Part shown: piece after piece, positions 9,227 through 56,000 of the stretch
How positions within the stretch are numbered: the stretch's first letter is position 1
Layout of the letters: each line of letters starts with the position of its first letter
IMG/VR virus record: IMGVR_UViG_3300046616_000188
Reading direction: 5' to 3' (one strand)
Source: a virus
Length of the DNA stretch: 64,000 bases
The notes under the pieces: model-generated
What the model was told of the DNA's origin: nothing
Seen by the model: only the letters and a program-made list of their open reading frames with translations
The model's database searches: none
Position numbers and translations under genes: made by a program

Positions 9227-9871
9227 GTGAATAAGTATAACGCAAGTTTTGTTTTCGGCACAGCCCTCACCGCTGTAACTTATGCCATCGGCGCTGTAGC
9301 GGGTTGGGTCGATCCTCACAACATCAATTGGATCGAATTCTTCGCGGTCTGGACCAGCTATGTCTGCACTCTGATGTGCGTGTATCAGACCCGTTGGAAT
9401 TATCCAATCGGCGCTGTTTCGACCATCCTTTCCGCCATTTTGTTCTACAAAATAGACTTACCAGCTATCGGACTTTTCAATATCCTCCTTTCGATTAATT
9501 TGATCTATGGCTGGTTCCGCTGGCGCGACGATGAAGACACCCGCCCCGTCACTAATCCATCACTGATTTGGTGGGTCGGATATGTAGGCATAGCCGCCGC
9601 AACATATGCCCTAATTACTGTGGTTAACAACTATTACGGCTATAGCCAGACTTGGATCGATATCACAACTGCGGTAGTCTATGCCGTGGCCCAAGCCATG
9701 CTAGACAATAAGCACCGCACCAATTGGGCCGTGTTTTTCGTGCTGAATGTTCTCTCGATCTATCTGTTCTTCAAGCAGGAACTGTATTTCGTGGCACTTC
9801 AATATCTGTATTTCCTCGGAAATACTGCCTATGGACATGTATCGTGGCGCATAGAACCTCGCACCGCTTAA
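9227..9871 (+). CDS. pnuC: nicotinamide riboside/NMN transporter PnuC
   Basis: About 7 transmembrane segments; WNYPIG, YGWFRW, AQAMLDNK, YGHVSW motifs; NadR lies 0.9 kb downstream. Confidence 0.85.
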   Translation: MNKYNASFVFGTALTAVTYAIGAVAGWVDPHNINWIEFFAVWTSYVCTLMCVYQTRWNYPIGAVSTILSAILFYKIDLPAIGLFNILLSINLIYGWFRWRDDEDTRPVTNPSLIWWVGYVGIAAATYALITVVNNYYGYSQTWIDITTAVVYAVAQAMLDNKHRTNWAVFFVLNVLSIYLFFKQELYFVALQYLYFLGNTAYGHVSWRIEPRTA

Positions 9872-10773: not shown

Positions 10774-11805
10774 TTGAGAGAGGTTTACGTGGCAAAAACG
10801 ACTGGACTTATTGTAATTTCTGGACTTCTACCGACACGTGGCCATCAGTATCTCATTGATTTCGCATCTAATTTTGCTGATCAACTTCACGTCATTGTCT
10901 GCATCAGGTCATTTGAACCTGCCCTAACCCTTGACAGGGCAGAAGTCTTGGCACGGCATTACGCCAGAACCAATGTCACGGTGCATGAGCATTACGCCGA
11001 TGACGCGCCACAGAACGATGACGGCACGCCAGAATTTTGGGCCTATTGGTCGAATCTTGTAGACCGTGCCATCACTAAGCGGACCAAGATCGACTATCTG
11101 TTTGCCTCTGAGCATTACGGCGCTAGGTTTGCCGAAGCGCTTGGCGTCACGTTTATTCCAGTCGATATCGGCAGGGAAATTCTTAGTGTCACAGGGACAA
11201 GTGTGAGACGAAATCTGGCTGAGAATTTTAAATATATTCTGCCAGAATATCAGACTAAACTGTCCAAAACTATCTGCATGTTCGGCCAAGAGAGTGTGGG
11301 TAAAACCACTATGGCGAAATGGCTCGCCGCTAAGCTGGAAGGCCGTTGGATTCATGAATGGGCTAGGCCGTATCTCGAAGAAATCGGCGCTGAAGTCACT
11401 GACGAAAAAATGTTAAACATTGTTCGTGGCCAATTCGCAGCCATGGTTTCTGCTCCTAAATCCCTGTTTAATATAAGAGATACCGATCTCTTGTCCACAA
11501 TCGGTTACTACAAAATTTATGGCGGTAAGGTTCCTAAAGAACTTTATGAAAATTTTAACTTGACAAAGAGCGATCTTTATGTCATGTTAAATGACAATAT
11601 CCCATTCGAAGCTGATCCTTTGAGATATGGCGGCGATAAGAGGGAAAGTACGATGCAGTTCTGGATCGATCTACTCGATGAGTATGACTGCAAATATCAT
11701 GTCGTAGAAAATACAGACATTTTGAAACAGCGAAAAGAAGTTGTCGAAGCTGTTTATGATTTTTTCACCGATCTTCGTGAAATAGAAGAATTCGTTCGAG
11801 ATTAA
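10774..11805 (+). CDS. nadR: NadR-like bifunctional NMN adenylyltransferase / ribosylnicotinamide kinase
   Basis: N-terminal (T/H)xGH motif PTRGH, FASEHYG, VTGTSVR; C-terminal P-loop GQESVGKTT, EWARPY, RDTD, DPLRYG. Confidence 0.88.
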   Translation: MREVYVAKTTGLIVISGLLPTRGHQYLIDFASNFADQLHVIVCIRSFEPALTLDRAEVLARHYARTNVTVHEHYADDAPQNDDGTPEFWAYWSNLVDRAITKRTKIDYLFASEHYGARFAEALGVTFIPVDIGREILSVTGTSVRRNLAENFKYILPEYQTKLSKTICMFGQESVGKTTMAKWLAAKLEGRWIHEWARPYLEEIGAEVTDEKMLNIVRGQFAAMVSAPKSLFNIRDTDLLSTIGYYKIYGGKVPKELYENFNLTKSDLYVMLNDNIPFEADPLRYGGDKRESTMQFWIDLLDEYDCKYHVVENTDILKQRKEVVEAVYDFFTDLREIEEFVRD

Positions 11806-11814
11806 GGGACTAGA

Positions 11815-12003
11815 ATGTCTAACTATGCACTTTTCTTCATGTGGCTGAAAATGTTCTTCACCGATTTGGTGTGGCTATTCGGCCTGTCTTACGGGCTGTA
11901 TTTTTTGGCCAGCATCTTCCATCCCGGAATTTTAATTTTTGTCGCGTCGGTTTTTATAGCGTCGGCGGCATACAGTTCCGTAACACGGTTCTATCAACAC
12001 TAA
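11815..12003 (+). CDS. small two-TM membrane protein
   Basis: 62 aa, hydrophobic, with RBS. Confidence 0.55.
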   Translation: MSNYALFFMWLKMFFTDLVWLFGLSYGLYFLASIFHPGILIFVASVFIASAAYSSVTRFYQH

Positions 12004-12012
12004 GGAACTAAA

Positions 12013-12429
12013 ATGACTATCAACTACAAATGGCTGACGTTTAATTGCGTTTCACTATTCGTCTTGGCCTTTCTGGTCAATTACTATGACGCAGCTACGT
12101 TCATTTGGACCAAGGATAAAACGCATATCACCCTAGTAATTCTGTCTCTCTATGCAGCTTGTTCAGCCTATCTAGGCTACAAGGGCGGCGAGCCGGAAGC
12201 CATGAAAAAGGTTAGGTTCCACCTGAATCGTTTCACTATGCTAGGACTTATGGGCACGATGGCTGGCCTAATCCTGATGTTCTTCGGCGCATCCGACTTG
12301 GACGCTTTCAGGCAGAATATTCTTTCTGAGGTTGGCCCGGTATTCCTCACTGGCTTGTTCGGCATTTCCGCGAGCTACATCCTCGATTATCAAATCGCGC
12401 TATGCTTTGGTAATTACGACGAAGCGTAA
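12013..12429 (+). CDS. MotA/TolQ/ExbB proton-channel family protein
   Basis: Four TMs; FTMLGLMGTMAGLILMF and FLTGLFGISASYIL match the last two helices of the family. Confidence 0.75.
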   Translation: MTINYKWLTFNCVSLFVLAFLVNYYDAATFIWTKDKTHITLVILSLYAACSAYLGYKGGEPEAMKKVRFHLNRFTMLGLMGTMAGLILMFFGASDLDAFRQNILSEVGPVFLTGLFGISASYILDYQIALCFGNYDEA

Positions 12430-12449
12430 CTTTTGAAAGGAAGAGCCTA

Positions 12450-13037
12450 ATGAAAGGCCCTGTCAAAATCGCATACATTGACGTTCTATCATGCCTAGTA
12501 GTAGTGCTCTTAGTAGTGGTTATCTTCTCCACACCAAAAAAAGAAGAATCTAAAGGAAATATCATCGATCCGAGTCAGTACCTAATCGAAATGACTTGGA
12601 CCGACGATTCGCCTAATGATATTGATTTGTGGGTCGCCAATCCCAATAATCAAATTGCCTATTTCGGAACTAGAGAAATTGGCGGCATGACACTGGACAC
12701 AGACAATTTAGGCATCGGAAACACTTATATCACCGATAGCGCCGGTAACACCGTCGTTAATAAGACTAGAAGAGAAGTTGCAAGTATTAGAACGCCTATC
12801 GCTGGAACTTACACAGTTAATGTTTTGCTTTACGGAAATCGTAACAACAAGCCAGAAACTATTAGAGTAAGAGTTTTCAAACTTAATCCTTATAAAGATG
12901 TAATTGAAAAGGAAGTAATTTTGGAAACTCAGATGCAGGAAACCACGATAGTCCAATTCGATATTGACAAAGATGGTAAATTCCTGAGCAAGTCTGAAAG
13001 TGAACAAGTTTCTCTAATGGCAAAGTTAAAACCATGA
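12450..13037 (+). CDS. ExbD/MotB-like single-TM protein with YfaP/DUF2135-like extracytoplasmic domain
   Basis: TM begins AYIDVL (conserved-Asp position); then MTW...DIDLWVANP...YFG...GMTLDTD...YTVNV. Confidence 0.6.
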   Translation: MKGPVKIAYIDVLSCLVVVLLVVVIFSTPKKEESKGNIIDPSQYLIEMTWTDDSPNDIDLWVANPNNQIAYFGTREIGGMTLDTDNLGIGNTYITDSAGNTVVNKTRREVASIRTPIAGTYTVNVLLYGNRNNKPETIRVRVFKLNPYKDVIEKEVILETQMQETTIVQFDIDKDGKFLSKSESEQVSLMAKLKP

Positions 13038-13510
13038 TCATTACCTTTATTATCGCTTTAGGTCTAGTTCTTCTCACGATCTTTGTAGGTTTCCGGTATA
13101 GTTGGAAAGCCTCACTAGCCGTTCTAATTCCTCTGCTTTATGTAGGGTATTGGACCTTATCTATTCAAGTTCCTAAATATTTTGGCTATGCCCTGCCCCT
13201 CAATTTTGCCGAATTAAACAATCAAGCAAGATTTATTAGCGGCTTTGAAGGAAAAGATGCAATTTACATCCTCCTGCTAGAGAAGGGTGACACTCAGCCT
13301 AGACTGATCAGCATCCCTAACACGGCGAAGAATAAACAAACTTTTTATGACCTTCAAAAACAGTCCAAGGCCGGTAAAAGTGCAGTGCTCCGCAAATCTA
13401 AAAAGACAGGCGCGACGGACAGAGAAGGTCAAGGTCCTGACTCAGAAAGCGATATTGAAGGCGTCGAGCTTAAAGACCAAGACATCATTCAGAAAGGCGC
13501 TGATCAGTGA
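13034..13510 (+). CDS. membrane-anchored protein, third gene of the MotA/ExbB-like operon
   Basis: Two N-terminal TMs; ATGA overlap with the upstream gene. Confidence 0.6.
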   Translation: MIITFIIALGLVLLTIFVGFRYSWKASLAVLIPLLYVGYWTLSIQVPKYFGYALPLNFAELNNQARFISGFEGKDAIYILLLEKGDTQPRLISIPNTAKNKQTFYDLQKQSKAGKSAVLRKSKKTGATDREGQGPDSESDIEGVELKDQDIIQKGADQ

Positions 13511-13931: not shown

Positions 13932-14207
13932 TTGTATTACCTTCTTCCTAGCCTCGCAGTTAATGGTTTATTTTTAATTTTCCTGATCGCAATAGCGGCC
14001 CGCAAGATGGGCAGCACACCATTGAACAAGGTGAGACACAAAGTTCGTGGCACAACATATGAAATTATCGGTTTCGCCACGGTCCAGACCGCAGATTCTT
14101 TAAAAGATGATGACAGGGTTTTTGTTTATCGCGACGTTGACGATGACGAGATGTATGTCAGACTGGACCGAGAATTTGCCGATGGAAGATTTGAAAAGGT
14201 AGATTGA
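13932..14207 (+). CDS. DUF1653-like SH3-fold protein
   Basis: VRHKVRGTTYEII...VFVYRD...MYVR...EF..GRF pattern. Confidence 0.5.
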   Translation: MYYLLPSLAVNGLFLIFLIAIAARKMGSTPLNKVRHKVRGTTYEIIGFATVQTADSLKDDDRVFVYRDVDDDEMYVRLDREFADGRFEKVD

Positions 14208-14701
14208 TGCCAAGTGTTACAAAAACTGGAATTTTAGTCAAAGCCGCTTTATCCGGCCAACGTGATAAAATGGGTGTCTCTAAACATGCTCATTGTGTCA
14301 GGGTTTACCACAACGCATTAAGACTTATTAAAGATTATAACATCACGGATGAAAAGATTATCGGTGACATCAAGCTTGTCGCATTGCTCCACGACATTCT
14401 TGAGGATAGCGATCTTACATCGAATGATCTTCATGTCTTCGGATATAGCAACGCTGTAATTGATGCGGTAGAGCTTGTTACGCATGAAACCGCTAAACAG
14501 ACTTATCCTCTGTATATCGATGATCTATGTGCCGCTGGCAATGTCGTTGCCCTTATTGCTAAACTGGCTGACAATCTAGATAATACGTCTGAGGAAAGAA
14601 GCGCTATGCTGCAACAACGATTTAGGGATTATCTTAACCGGAAGTATGCCGGGGTGAGACAGAAACTAGAAGCCGCGATTGAGAAAGCTTTAGATGTCTA
14701 A
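14204..14701 (+). CDS. HD-domain hydrolase, SpoT/Mesh1 (small alarmone hydrolase)-like
   Basis: HCVRV, ALLHDILEDS, AVELVTH, AKLADNLDN. Confidence 0.75.
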   Translation: MMPSVTKTGILVKAALSGQRDKMGVSKHAHCVRVYHNALRLIKDYNITDEKIIGDIKLVALLHDILEDSDLTSNDLHVFGYSNAVIDAVELVTHETAKQTYPLYIDDLCAAGNVVALIAKLADNLDNTSEERSAMLQQRFRDYLNRKYAGVRQKLEAAIEKALDV

Positions 14702-24819: not shown

Positions 24820-26943
24820 ATGAAATCAAATAACGCATTAGCTTCTGATGTGACGGTACACGGCGCTCAGGAATCGGGCAATTTTACCATTGACGCAAAT
24901 GGTAAAGCTTTTAAAATTCTAATCGACGGACTATATTCGAACAAAATCCAAGCCATTGTCAGAGAGCTTTCATCGAACGCTTACGACGCGCAGATAGCAG
25001 CCGGTCGTAGTGATTTTGCCTTCGATATTCAACTCCCCAATCTCCTTGATCCGATCTTCTCAGTCAGAGACTATGGAACTTCTTTGATCCACGAAGATAT
25101 TATGGGCCTATATACCACGGTCTTCAGGAGCACTAAGGAGAACACGAATCTAGCCATCGGCAAGTTCGGCCTAGGTTCTAAAACGCCTTTCGCCTATACC
25201 GATAGCTTCACCGTAACCGCGTTTCTACGCGGCACGAAGCGTATCTATGGCGCTTACATCAATCCTAACGGCATTCCTCAAATCTCTCTCATGATGTCGG
25301 AAGACACGGACGAGCTAGACGGCTTGATGGTTTCGTTCCCCGTCAATTCAAAGGACTGCGAACGCTTCAGGTCTGAGACGGAAAAGGTCTTGGAAGGTTT
25401 TGACGTTATGCCGAACGTCAGAGGCGGCGAAGTCACGGTAGAAAAATATGCAATTGTCCATACCGGTTCTAATTTTAAAATTCTCACCAATGGTGGGGCA
25501 AGAGCTAAACAAGGCTGTGTGATTTACCCCCTTGATAAGGGTGCGTTAGGCTCCCTGACCAAGGCCCAACTGGATATTTTAAATTCGAACATCTTGATCG
25601 ATTTCCCGGTGGGGCAATTGGACATTACTCCGAGCCGTGAATCACTGAGCTACGATGACAATACTATTAAAAATATTATTGACATGGTCGATAAGATTCA
25701 CGAAGAACTTGTCCGAGACATTGCAGCCTTGTTCGCCAAGGTTAGAACGATGCACGAGGCGCGCTGTTTCGTTGCTCTGCATAAAACTTCTCCTATTAAA
25801 GCAATCAGTAACTATGCCGCTCACCTTAGATTTAATAATAAACCAGTCTATCCCGCGACATCTATGGCAAGGGATAAATTACGCCAAGTCTACGGTGTCG
25901 GTATTACTCAGATCAGTGATCATAACATTAGACATGAAAAGCCTATCAGGTTCAATGATAAAGAGTACGCCACGAAGTGGGAAGTAGACGAAGACACGAT
26001 GTTCTTGGTCGAGGATTACACCAAGGACAAACACGTCAAATTAATTAAAGCTAGAATTCACAATAATTTAGGGCGTCACAAGAATATTGTTTGGGTAAGA
26101 GATTACGAACGTGATCCGAAAAAATGGAGAAGCTTTCTCAGACTACTCGGATTCCCGCCGAAGTTCTATAAGCTGGAAGATTTCGTCCTGCCAGAACGGG
26201 AAAAACTGGATCGTGCCACTTTCGCGCCAAGAATAAAGAAGAACGAAGTCAGGATTATTCGATTTGATCGATACGAAGATGTGGTTGATTTAAATACATT
26301 ACCTAGTAATACTCGCTACGTCATCTCACATAACGGCACGCTATGGGTAGACGAGAATTATGATAATTATGTCTACGAGCAGACCGTTAGGAACCTATTC
26401 GAAGACACTTCAAATATCTTAGTGGTGAAACAGAAGTCACTCAATAAAGTTAAGGCGGCGGGCGTGACTAACGCATTGACGGAACGCCGAGACGACTTAG
26501 CCAGAGATTTAGATTTCGAATCATTCGTTGCAAAAAGCAATTTGGAGAAATATTTAAACCACTGGATCAAAGATTATGCCAGTGAGTTAAGTACATTAGA
26601 ATACGAAAGTGACACTTCGTTTAAAAAAGTCCTTGACTTTATGCGAAAATATGTTAAGACGGAAAGCACTGAACAAAGTGAGAACGCAGCCAACATTATG
26701 TTGTGGCAAAAACTTGTTACGTCAACCGTCTTCTATGCGAAGCAAAACGAATTCACAATTCCTAAACCGGAAGACGATGAAACCCTTAGTTATTGGGTCG
26801 GTAAGATCGTAGAAGAATATCCCTTGACAAAGAAATATATCGGTAAGCATTGGGACGACGGCACTTTCTCATCCGATCTGGAACATATTTTTAATTATAT
26901 TAAAATGGTAGATAAGTTCAATGCCGAAAATTGTGTATCATGA
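24820..26943 (+). CDS. rIIA: rIIA-like protein (GHKL ATPase N-terminus)
   Basis: LYSNKIQAIVRELSSNAYDA, VRDYGTSL, GKFGLGSKTPFAY, ITPSRESLSYD. Confidence 0.88.
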   Translation: MKSNNALASDVTVHGAQESGNFTIDANGKAFKILIDGLYSNKIQAIVRELSSNAYDAQIAAGRSDFAFDIQLPNLLDPIFSVRDYGTSLIHEDIMGLYTTVFRSTKENTNLAIGKFGLGSKTPFAYTDSFTVTAFLRGTKRIYGAYINPNGIPQISLMMSEDTDELDGLMVSFPVNSKDCERFRSETEKVLEGFDVMPNVRGGEVTVEKYAIVHTGSNFKILTNGGARAKQGCVIYPLDKGALGSLTKAQLDILNSNILIDFPVGQLDITPSRESLSYDDNTIKNIIDMVDKIHEELVRDIAALFAKVRTMHEARCFVALHKTSPIKAISNYAAHLRFNNKPVYPATSMARDKLRQVYGVGITQISDHNIRHEKPIRFNDKEYATKWEVDEDTMFLVEDYTKDKHVKLIKARIHNNLGRHKNIVWVRDYERDPKKWRSFLRLLGFPPKFYKLEDFVLPEREKLDRATFAPRIKKNEVRIIRFDRYEDVVDLNTLPSNTRYVISHNGTLWVDENYDNYVYEQTVRNLFEDTSNILVVKQKSLNKVKAAGVTNALTERRDDLARDLDFESFVAKSNLEKYLNHWIKDYASELSTLEYESDTSFKKVLDFMRKYVKTESTEQSENAANIMLWQKLVTSTVFYAKQNEFTIPKPEDDETLSYWVGKIVEEYPLTKKYIGKHWDDGTFSSDLEHIFNYIKMVDKFNAENCVS

Positions 26944-54416: not shown

Positions 54417-56000
54417 ATGAATTTATCTGATAAGGAAATTTTTACTGCCATTAAAAAGTATGGCAGTGCCCGTAAAGCAGCACAAGCCCTTGGCATTCCT
54501 AAGTCAACTTTCTCAGACGCGGTGCGGCGTACCCGCTCTGGCCAGATTACCGAGACTAAAGTTATTAAGCCGGTAATCCTCAAAGCCCCTAAGAAAAAAG
54601 GTGCGGTAAAGCGCTACATCCTGACCAGCGTTCAAGACGGAACAAAGATTCACCCGTTCTTCAATGTTCTAAAAGTTTACGCCGAATATCTAGATGCGGA
54701 AATTATGGTGTCGGGTTACACCTATAACAAGTCTCTGTTTCAGGAGCATAGCAAGCACAAAGTTGTGTTCCCCGCTGAAGTCCTGCCATATCTCACAAAT
54801 GATCGCGTCTTGCTCGGTGACAAGGTTGTATTTTGCGGTGAGATGAATATCCTACCCACGGCAAGTGATCCACTGCTAGGCCTTAAGACGTACACAGAAA
54901 ATAAATGGGGAATCATTCCGCACGCCAAGATCAGACTTGAATCCGTGCCTATGATGAAGGGCGATCCGGCTAAGATCGTCATGACCACTGGCACAATCTC
55001 TAAGCCTAATTATGTGCAGAAGCGCGCCGGATTGATTGCTGAATTCCATCACACCTACGGCGCTGTTTTGGTTGAAGTTTGTGCCAACGGCGAATTCTTC
55101 TGTCGCCACCTCATGGGCGAAGACGACACCGGCAATTTCTATGATCTAACCAGATACGTCACGGCAGAAGGAGTTGTAGAAGGTAACCGAGTCGCAGCTA
55201 TAGGTTGGGGCGACATTCACTACGAAAAACTTGACGAAACAGCCGCTATTGCCGCGCTCGGTTACTCACCTCTAATGAAGAGTAATGTCGTCAGCGATTC
55301 TCTCTTGGACATCTTGAAACCGTATCATCAGTTCTTTCACGATACTATCGACTTTCGCTCCCGAAACCACCACTCTATCAACGATCCACATTTCCGGTTT
55401 GAGATGTGGGTAAATAATACTGAGAGCGTGGAGCACGATCTTACGAACGCGGCGCTGTTCCTCAGTAAGACTAAGCGTGACTGGTGTACGAGTGTTATCA
55501 TTGAATCTAATCACGATACCGCCCTATCTAAATGGTTGAAGACCGGTGATTACAGGCAAGACCCTGTAAACGCTATACTTTTTCTCGAAACGCAACTCGG
55601 GAAATACAAAGCCATCCGTGACGGCGATGCGAAGTATAACATTTTTTGGGAAGCGATCAAGCGCTACAGTCCTGATAATGCGCAAGGCCTTGTTTTCGTT
55701 CCAGAAGATAGCTCGTATCAGGTCTGTGGCATCGAAATGGGGATGCACGGCCACCTCGGAGCCAATGGGGCTCGCCCCTCGCCTCGCTCCTTCTCTCGCA
55801 TGGGAACGAAGGCTAACACGGCTCATGCTCACAGTGCCTCTATCTTCGACGGGATTTGGACCCAAGGCGTGATGGGCAAGCTCGATATGGGTTATAACAA
55901 GGGCCTAAGCTCTTGGAGCCCGACTCACACCATAACTCATCTCAACGCTAAGAGGCAAATGTTGACCATGAGCCCTAGCGGTAGATTTTATGCAGAATGA
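54417..56000 (+). CDS. N-terminal HTH plus calcineurin-like phosphoesterase domain protein
   Basis: GSARKAAQALGIPKSTFSD; WGDIH, HDTIDF, ESNHD, MHGH, AHAH. Confidence 0.7.
   Translation: MNLSDKEIFTAIKKYGSARKAAQALGIPKSTFSDAVRRTRSGQITETKVIKPVILKAPKKKGAVKRYILTSVQDGTKIHPFFNVLKVYAEYLDAEIMVSGYTYNKSLFQEHSKHKVVFPAEVLPYLTNDRVLLGDKVVFCGEMNILPTASDPLLGLKTYTENKWGIIPHAKIRLESVPMMKGDPAKIVMTTGTISKPNYVQKRAGLIAEFHHTYGAVLVEVCANGEFFCRHLMGEDDTGNFYDLTRYVTAEGVVEGNRVAAIGWGDIHYEKLDETAAIAALGYSPLMKSNVVSDSLLDILKPYHQFFHDTIDFRSRNHHSINDPHFRFEMWVNNTESVEHDLTNAALFLSKTKRDWCTSVIIESNHDTALSKWLKTGDYRQDPVNAILFLETQLGKYKAIRDGDAKYNIFWEAIKRYSPDNAQGLVFVPEDSSYQVCGIEMGMHGHLGANGARPSPRSFSRMGTKANTAHAHSASIFDGIWTQGVMGKLDMGYNKGLSSWSPTHTITHLNAKRQMLTMSPSGRFYAE

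Follow-up and report, generated by a model that had tools for sequence, protein, structure and literature searches.

Introduction

Why should a phage carry, within an early and replication region, three tightly packed membrane-protein genes of its own that source databases know only as 'hypothetical protein'? The question is raised by the IMG/VR virus record IMGVR_UViG_3300046616_000188, from which a stretch of 64,000 nucleotides (hereafter, the window) was analysed and in which the trio, here called A, B and C, occupies positions 12013-13510 of the + strand. The window derives from a large phage and is present in DNA runs of rhizosphere metagenomes. An initial annotation had recognized three co-directional membrane genes at this place, which were confirmed on the + strand, and had proposed that they encode an ion-driven envelope machine. 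Motors of the MotA/ExbB type are known in only a handful of uses, namely flagellar rotation, Ton uptake, Tol-Pal division, gliding and type 9 secretion, and Zorya defence, and the cassette would add a further one, set apart by another kind of periplasmic head and by a third subunit that is obligatory. No description of an A-B-C cassette was found in the literature on the related families, the motors or phage 16-3, one of the cultured phages that carry it.

In this article, I will argue that the trio is probably a minimal ion-driven complex of the MotA/ExbB type, taken from bacteria and trimmed, in which C acts as an arm toward the cell wall and which serves the phage as an accessory envelope module. 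The first support comes from gene order. The A-B-C arrangement is kept in every locus whose contig extends far enough (about 180 examined), and the recurrence of the same order in so many loci is far beyond chance, so that the co-occurrence elsewhere on which the initial annotation had staked its case is well established. The order holds in 49 of the 49 loci of one set, in 48 of 52 bacterial loci in which all three genes were looked for, and in 78 of the 80 loci kept from the second of two pattern scans of IMG/VR, the contig ending after B in the other two; the first scan had given 18 loci and the second 140 matching stretches, on contigs of up to 527 kb.

A and B as a channel-type pair

A (12013-12429, +; 138 amino acids) is predicted to be a core of four transmembrane helices of the MotA/TolQ/ExbB type, nearly bare of any cytoplasmic part. 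A family profile built from 16 members matches 22 distinct solved chains of MotA, PomA, TolQ, ZorA and ExbB at E-values from 2.4e-6 to 0.013 (MotA, 8gqy, 2.4e-6; TolQ, 1.3e-5; ZorA, 3.7e-5; PomA, 5e-5; ExbB, 3.8e-3), and all of these matches are confined to the last two transmembrane helices, which are the channel helices, in agreement with the motor-type helices that had been read into this gene at the outset. In the LGLMGT helix, Thr82 (codon 12256-12258, +) aligns with the Thr of TolQ GLFGTVWG, and in the last transmembrane helix Thr113 (codon 12349-12351, +) aligns with the Thr of TolQ ALIATAIG; G81-T82 is invariant in the family alignment (A2) and Thr113 is conserved there to at least 90%. 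The window protein alone also matches the channel cores of ZorA in PADLOC (ZorA2 model, E 3e-6), and orthologs from the same cassette exceed the gathering cut-off of the Pfam MotA_ExbB model (PF01618), with 38.1 bits for the copy in locus L038, 33.7 for that in L066 and 31.8 for that of phage L121. The loop charges are consistent with a MotA-like topology in which both termini lie inside. Between the second and third helices the cytoplasmic loop of the window protein measures about 18 amino acids and after the fourth helix only an 8-residue tail follows, so that a sizeable cytoplasmic domain between or after the helices is absent, whereas in most bacterial copies of the cassette the loop runs to 90-100 amino acids; short loops are found in small-genome bacteria too. 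The phage versions, with an A of 138 amino acids, are the smallest natural forms, which makes them attractive for structural work.

B (12450-13037, +; 195 amino acids) joins an N-terminal transmembrane helix to a beta-sandwich head, and its AlphaFold2 model (mean predicted local distance difference test score, pLDDT, 90.1; predicted TM-score 0.74) places the helix at residues 3-26, a linker of about 17 amino acids after it and the sandwich at residues 44-182 (12579-12995, +). Near the cytoplasmic end of the helix lies Asp11 (codon 12480-12482, +; motif AYIDVL), the candidate ion-binding residue that had been assigned to the ExbD/MotB position, and its conservation, another point on which the initial annotation could have failed, is nearly complete: it is Asp in 198 of 199 diverse relatives, the single exception being a gap. 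Among solved chains the transmembrane region of the B profile matches segments of MotB and ZorB only, Asp aligned on Asp. The head carries W50, D57, D59, D85, G88 and E109 without exception in all 199 sequences, and D57, D59, D85 and E109 make up an acidic cluster.

What kind of head this is can be approached from structure and from sequence. Compared as a fold, it resembles TerD (VIA Z 10.1 and 9.8 over 138 residues against TerD structures, with the next unrelated structure at 6.4; Foldseek E 5e-4), and a search of a viral structure library returned TerD-like proteins as well. The Pfam TerD model (PF02342) has no match on B, nor in five phage records that carry B, and the likeness to TerD is one of fold only, not of sequence. 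With E. coli YfaP, the B profile aligns at an hhalign E of 3e-5 (probability 73%, 87 columns) and by BLASTP at 2e-5, the two having in common the motifs W..D..D[IL]DL.V..P.G, LD.D, E[IV] and G.Y.V...Y; one JGI record and one atlas cluster have been named YfaP automatically. The Pfam DUF2135 model (PF09906, 48 positions) finds nothing on B at E up to 1. The YfaP/DUF2135-like head of the initial annotation can therefore be kept as a likeness that, judged by sequence comparison, is real but remote. An ExbD/TolR-type periplasmic domain (PF02472) gave no Pfam match in B at E up to 1 and an OmpA-like peptidoglycan-binding domain gave no match either, the whole soluble part being one sandwich.

C and its natural fusions to lysozyme

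C (13034-13510, +; 158 amino acids) was modelled by AlphaFold2 with medium confidence (pLDDT 72.9) as a transmembrane hairpin (residues 2-50), a small soluble beta/alpha domain (65-121), a disordered basic linker and a terminal strand (141-145), the last of these being conserved, with a near-terminal Lys, in alignment A3. Counted over 66 members of the family, the loop that joins the transmembrane helices holds 131 Lys or Arg versus 6 Asp or Glu and the N-terminal flank 12 versus 49, and when the positive-inside rule is applied to these charges both ends of C are predicted to be periplasmic (N-out/C-out), and the soluble part should face the periplasm. C has no significant family match in Pfam or profile searches, and no significant fold match (best Foldseek E 0.27, weak OB/TOBE-like barrels; VIA Z below 6, in rows dominated by the transmembrane hairpin). 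The earlier suggestion that C fills the slot of TonB or TolA is reasonable as a description of its role, given the periplasmic soluble part, but probably does not extend to homology with TonB or TolA, since C is built on a hairpin and matches no fold significantly.

The main functional clue is provided by natural fusions, which would bring the end of C to the cell wall. Six of the 78 further viral cassettes, representing at least 4 distinct sequences, have a C of 297-305 amino acids; the four fusions that were scanned carry a complete PF00959 Phage_lysozyme domain (E 1e-45 to 1e-50) directly after a full-length C, and each of the six is matched by a lysozyme profile (1e-81 to 1e-90) and retains the catalytic Glu/Asp/Thr signature. 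An atlas structure search also returned a viral cluster of 297-amino-acid proteins, each with a Phage_lysozyme domain, that aligned to residues 44-158 of C (TM-score 0.51). These fusions were recovered by using B as the handle and not by word searches with C, which gave no long form of 353 amino acids or more and no fusion among 38 matches of 84-171 amino acids; with a marine-type C as query there was no match in cultured phages. A lysozyme joined to C would link the output of C to peptidoglycan, in agreement with the periplasmic end predicted from its charges.

From bacteria to phages

A first homolog search, based on shared words, had given 24 clusters and what seemed a small phage-only family. 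The exhaustive search with a B profile returned 2,341 representatives at 50% identity, nearly all of about 200 amino acids and full length, 647 of them at E<=1e-30. Of 401 genomes sampled from the class to which an alphaproteobacterial metagenome-assembled genome belongs, 57, about one in seven, encode a full-length B, and the genes around the bacterial cassettes are of the housekeeping kind, for example those for CtaA, RNase H and a response regulator. The idea of a phage-specific device has to be given up accordingly: bacteria have the cassette as well as viruses, and the phage lineage captured it from bacteria and trimmed it. In a collection of plasmids, the only replicons with a cellular B are the Azospirillum chromids (H54-H60, 1.75-2.05 Mb), which carry it in two places each, and Azospirillum may be a tractable bacterial model for the triad.

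Within the bacterial loci, only one extra gene is recurrent, a lipoprotein-like gene D of about 260 amino acids that follows C in 12 loci of one bacterial subgroup (L038 8539-9333, L039 8828-9616, and also L028-L035 and L040). It is co-directional with C, often with overlapping stop and start, has a lipobox-like N-terminus and a sub-threshold DUF3108-like match, and is absent from all phage loci examined. Two other neighbours in the 52 bacterial neighbourhoods, a pyrroloquinoline quinone dehydrogenase (10 loci) and a generic ATP-binding cassette ATPase (9 loci), look like lineage adjacency and were rejected as partners.

Among cultured phages, B occurs in 29 of 50,697 records, all of them Rhizobium or Sinorhizobium phages, among which are Sinorhizobium phage 16-3 and Rhizobium phages P10VF and RHph; a nucleotide-level search of the stretch itself against cultured phages gave no match. 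The genomes of these carriers are of several types, measuring about 60, 68, 155 and 171 kb, and their flanking genes differ; virulent phages of 155-185 kb carry the cassette as well as temperate ones. Outside the lineage of the window the phage flanks also differ, usually consisting of replication or auxiliary genes. Many unrelated phages carry the triad whole, and the cultured ones, which are non-pathogenic systems, make its function testable at the bench, with the fusions providing a starting hypothesis about the cell wall. In a tree of B, made from a small sample and rooted at its midpoint, the window lies within a phage-only clade of 14 sequences (99/99 support) that takes in all the soil and Rhizobium-phage copies, and the copies of marine phages are placed apart from it, amid lineages of bacteria; three changes of the phage label are required on this tree, and the strongly supported branches alone are compatible with one origin.

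The temperate phage 16-3 has a bearing on whether the phage needs the cassette. Its triad (L050 4271-6132) consists of p038 (A), p040 (B) and p042 (C), interleaved with the small genes p039 (96 amino acids) and p041 (61 amino acids, hydrophobic), and lies at 22.65-24.5 kb of the genome, between immX (18.3 kb) and attP/int/xis (30.5-32.1 kb). Passages of PMC10460002, and a 1979 title cited there, describe the arm between immX and attP as genetically silent, and the position of the cassette inside this arm is taken as a sign that it is accessory. Most likely, it gives the phage an envelope module that is not essential.

Two kinds of neighbouring gene in phage loci are worth recording in their own right. 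Proteases lie near the cassette in four phage contexts (L050 3244-4143, L001 5585-6277, L128 1951-2502 and L121 569-1150), where 16-3 and RHph_N3_13 have a trypsin-like protease of the periplasmic type and the lysozyme-fusion loci L121 and L128 have a ClpP directly upstream of A; a protease as general partner was rejected, for the types differ and the window has none, and the proximity may be coincidence. In three marine phage loci (L014 2191-2517, L015 2113-2526 and L019 1893-2393), a small secreted-looking gene is found directly upstream of A, whose product of 108-166 amino acids has a common C-terminal motif of about ...SCV[IL]G[SV]G... and belongs to no Pfam family.

Relation to known motors

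A close parallel in overall plan is to ExbB-ExbD-TonB and TolQ-TolR-TolA, in which, like in the cassette, three inner-membrane proteins are encoded together. A possesses the G-T and T helices, B a single transmembrane helix with an Asp near its cytoplasmic end, and the third protein would have an output arm facing the periplasm. However, ExbB and TolQ have three transmembrane helices and a large cytoplasmic domain where A has four and almost none; the head of B is a TerD/DUF2135-type sandwich instead of the ExbD/TolR fold; C, with its hairpin and small barrel-like domain, shows neither a Pro-rich rod nor a recognizable C-terminal domain of TonB or TolA; and the cassette comes without a TonB-dependent transporter, TolB or Pal as partner. 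MotA-MotB and PomA-PomB give the best sequence match to the A profile, A shares the four-helix N-in topology of MotA and the B helix aligns Asp on Asp with that of MotB, but A does not have the cytoplasmic torque-generating domain, B has no OmpA-like peptidoglycan-binding domain or recognizable plug, the third subunit is obligatory and flagellar genes are missing from the cassette.

With ZorA-ZorB, the likeness extends from A (the ZorA2 model and ZorA chains already mentioned) to the transmembrane helix of ZorB (E 0.3), and for A it is no stronger than the likeness to MotA or TolQ. A does not have the long tail of ZorA, ending 8 amino acids after its fourth helix, B does not have the peptidoglycan-binding domain of ZorB, and ZorC, ZorD and ZorE are not nearby. 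An anti-Zorya role, one of those initially envisaged, was rejected: there is no Zorya-specific feature, and PADLOC finds no other part of Zorya, B and C being without a Zorya match. As for the relatives of the B head, E. coli YfaP is a protein of the alpha-2-macroglobulin operon and the TerD family consists of calcium-binding sandwiches, and unlike B they are not fused to a transmembrane helix of the MotB/ExbD type and have no motor partner described. A recent survey of MotAB homologs in 205 bacterial genomes (mBio 2025, PMC12505986) reports many non-flagellar, Exb/Tol-like pairs with assorted appendages whose function is unknown, and also a 'generic ion transporter' clade; the passages of that survey that were searched make no mention of phage copies, of a DUF2135/TerD-type B head or of a third subunit.

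What could the cassette do?

If the analogy to ExbBD-TonB, TolQR-TolA and MotAB holds, a dimer of B would be enclosed by several A subunits, and ions flowing past the Asp of B and the Thr residues of A would drive a movement (the solved motors used for this analogy are reviewed in PMC9389320). With so little of A in the cytoplasm, the work would have to be delivered in the membrane or the periplasm, through the B heads and C. Since some phages have joined an apparently active lysozyme to its C-terminus, C may serve as an output or adaptor arm extending to the cell wall; in the window, where C has no enzyme, the conserved terminal strand may recruit a partner or bind the wall itself. Made together with the early and replication genes, such a phage module would remodel, hold or gate the wall and envelope in dependence on membrane energization. 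Of the two alternatives first offered, that the phage installs its own motor or that it poisons those of its host, the former is favoured because A, B and C all come with the cassette, and poisoning has gained no specific support. Taken further, energization through A and B might move or gate a C that binds or cuts peptidoglycan, in which case the complex would represent a new functional class of wall-directed motors; this is an unlikely extension at present, though a consequential one, for if it is true then phages carry a portable, energy-coupled machine for wall remodelling or lysis control, and bacteria use the same A-B-C machine for an envelope task that has gone unrecognized.

Several observations weigh against the explanation of the cassette as an ion-driven complex with a wall-directed arm. 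Taken alone, the A protein of the window scores E 0.028 and 14.6 bits against the Pfam MotA_ExbB model, below the gathering cut-off of 22.9 bits, and the matches of B to the transmembrane segments of MotB and ZorB are not significant by themselves (E 0.08-2.3). An A5B2 stoichiometry and any rotation are pure analogy, and the putative calcium binding by the B head is read from fold and acidic motifs alone. The lysozyme fusions belong to a marine-type subgroup and not to the clade of the window; the fused cassettes lie amid genes for ribonucleotide reductase, RusA, ClpP, a 2-oxoglutarate oxygenase and an exonuclease, and not in a lysis module; and this lysozyme profile detects no lysozyme gene beside the unfused cassettes or in the window.

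The rival explanation that survives best, although I consider it unlikely, is that the phage copy replaces or boosts a host triad whose synthesis stops after infection, serving for example in the upkeep of the envelope until lysis. Such a role would suit proteins that retain every residue invariant in the cellular family, a cassette that adjoins the auxiliary genes PnuC, NadR and NAMPT, and a position in the non-essential arm of 16-3. On the other side, a Rhodovulum metagenome-assembled genome with a phage-type copy has no second, cellular copy, and no rhizobial plasmid or chromid was found to carry the triad; the phage-only clade of the window and its strongly trimmed A also hint at a role adapted to the phage. 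Host upkeep overlaps with the explanation of an ion-driven complex with a wall arm rather than excluding it.

Lysis timing is distinctly unlikely. The A-B channel would sense or dissipate the membrane potential and thereby hold or release C together with any fused lysozyme, much as the signal-arrest-release endolysins, which are membrane-tethered, are released when the membrane is de-energized. A fused lysozyme with its catalytic motif kept, a C that is membrane-tethered with a predicted periplasmic end, and an RIIA-like gene 11 kb downstream in the same direction of transcription are all in keeping with this model. However, the cassette is never found in a recognizable lysis module, its flanks being topoisomerase, exonuclease, late sigma factor, NadR, ribonucleotide reductase and ClpP; most cassettes, including that of the window, are without a lysozyme on or beside C; and the triad is chromosomal in many bacteria that offer no prophage context for it.

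It is also conceivable, if very unlikely, that there is no motor at all and that A and B form a gated ion channel or sensor, for instance one in which the B head would respond to calcium and C would be the regulatory subunit. A offers hardly any cytoplasmic domain against which a motor could push, the B linker, at about 17 amino acids, is too short for B to reach far into the periplasm, and the head combines a TerD-type fold with an invariant acidic cluster like the calcium-binding one of TerD. Against this stands the established fact that all characterized complexes in which an A ring encloses an Asp-bearing B axle are force-generating motors (reviewed in PMC9389320), and both the fusions to lysozyme and the presence of a third subunit that is obligatory point to an output of a mechanical or targeting kind. 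Exclusion of superinfecting phages, or a block to energized DNA entry, in which the envelope or the ion gradient would be altered against later phages, seems just as improbable. A membrane complex encoded in an early or accessory region, located in 16-3 some 4 kb downstream of the immunity region immX, would be in keeping with this function, but specific support is lacking, the cellular homologs are found in housekeeping contexts, the PADLOC matches extend to the generic ZorA core only, and virulent phages of 155-185 kb carry the cassette, not just temperate ones. Least credible of all is a decoy, in which a trimmed A or B would mix into the Tol, Ton or Zorya complexes of the host and disable them, as an A without its cytoplasmic part and with family-level likeness to the channel cores of TolQ, ExbB and ZorA might do, since the cassette always supplies a matched A, B and C with all functional residues kept, the phage A is far closer to the A of the cellular triad (hidden Markov model E 1e-20 to 1e-38) than to TolQ, ExbB or ZorA (about 1e-5), and the short loops of small-genome bacteria show that trimming is no phage-only sign of a dominant-negative protein.

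Genomic setting

In the window, A is preceded by p62 (11815-12003, +), a small open reading frame of 62 amino acids with two predicted transmembrane helices and a ribosome-binding site. The spacing between the p62, A and B genes is 9-20 nucleotides, the stop of B and the start of C overlap as ATGA, and each gene has a Shine-Dalgarno-like ribosome-binding site. Because consensus scans found no promoter or terminator above shuffled expectation within p62-A-B-C, transcription is probably by read-through from the upstream side, where PnuC (9227-9871) and a NadR-like bifunctional enzyme (10774-11805) are encoded. The initial annotation had noted p62 in front of the three genes, and the open reading frame does exist, but it does not belong to the conserved unit: it has no match in family libraries, its sole match is a weak, positional one in the closest relative of the window (L005; 38% over 61 amino acids, E 0.13), and none of the other phage and bacterial loci examined has it ahead of A. 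p62 is thus lineage-specific and lies outside the conserved cassette. The position directly after nadR, from which early host-takeover expression had been suggested, is likewise true of the window but is restricted to its lineage, NadR being found upstream of the cassette only in the window and its two closest relatives, L005 (1049-2065) and L006 (1226-2239), in both of which a 110-amino-acid gene stands between NadR and the cassette, and other phages differ.

The rest of the window is a one-strand early and replication region that encodes a primase, the RIIA-like protein, a DNA ligase, two RNA ligases, a helicase and a DNA polymerase. Contigs of four further rhizosphere runs show zero differences from the stretch, i.e., no population variation. 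About 700 nucleotides downstream of the cassette lies a gene for an HD-domain phosphohydrolase (14204-14701; phrog_990, E 2e-19), and in phage 16-3 an HD-superfamily deoxyribonucleotide phosphatase is encoded about 3 kb downstream of the cassette. The RIIA-like protein (24820-26943, same strand as the cassette; phrog_612, E 2e-121) has 707 amino acids. RII proteins associate with the membrane and act against exclusion systems whose effect is to collapse the membrane potential, and with the cassette this gene brings two functions related to membrane energy into one early region. Amid the replication genes, positions 54417-56000 encode a protein of 527 amino acids that matches phrog_1745, annotated as 'DNA transfer protein' (E 5e-181).

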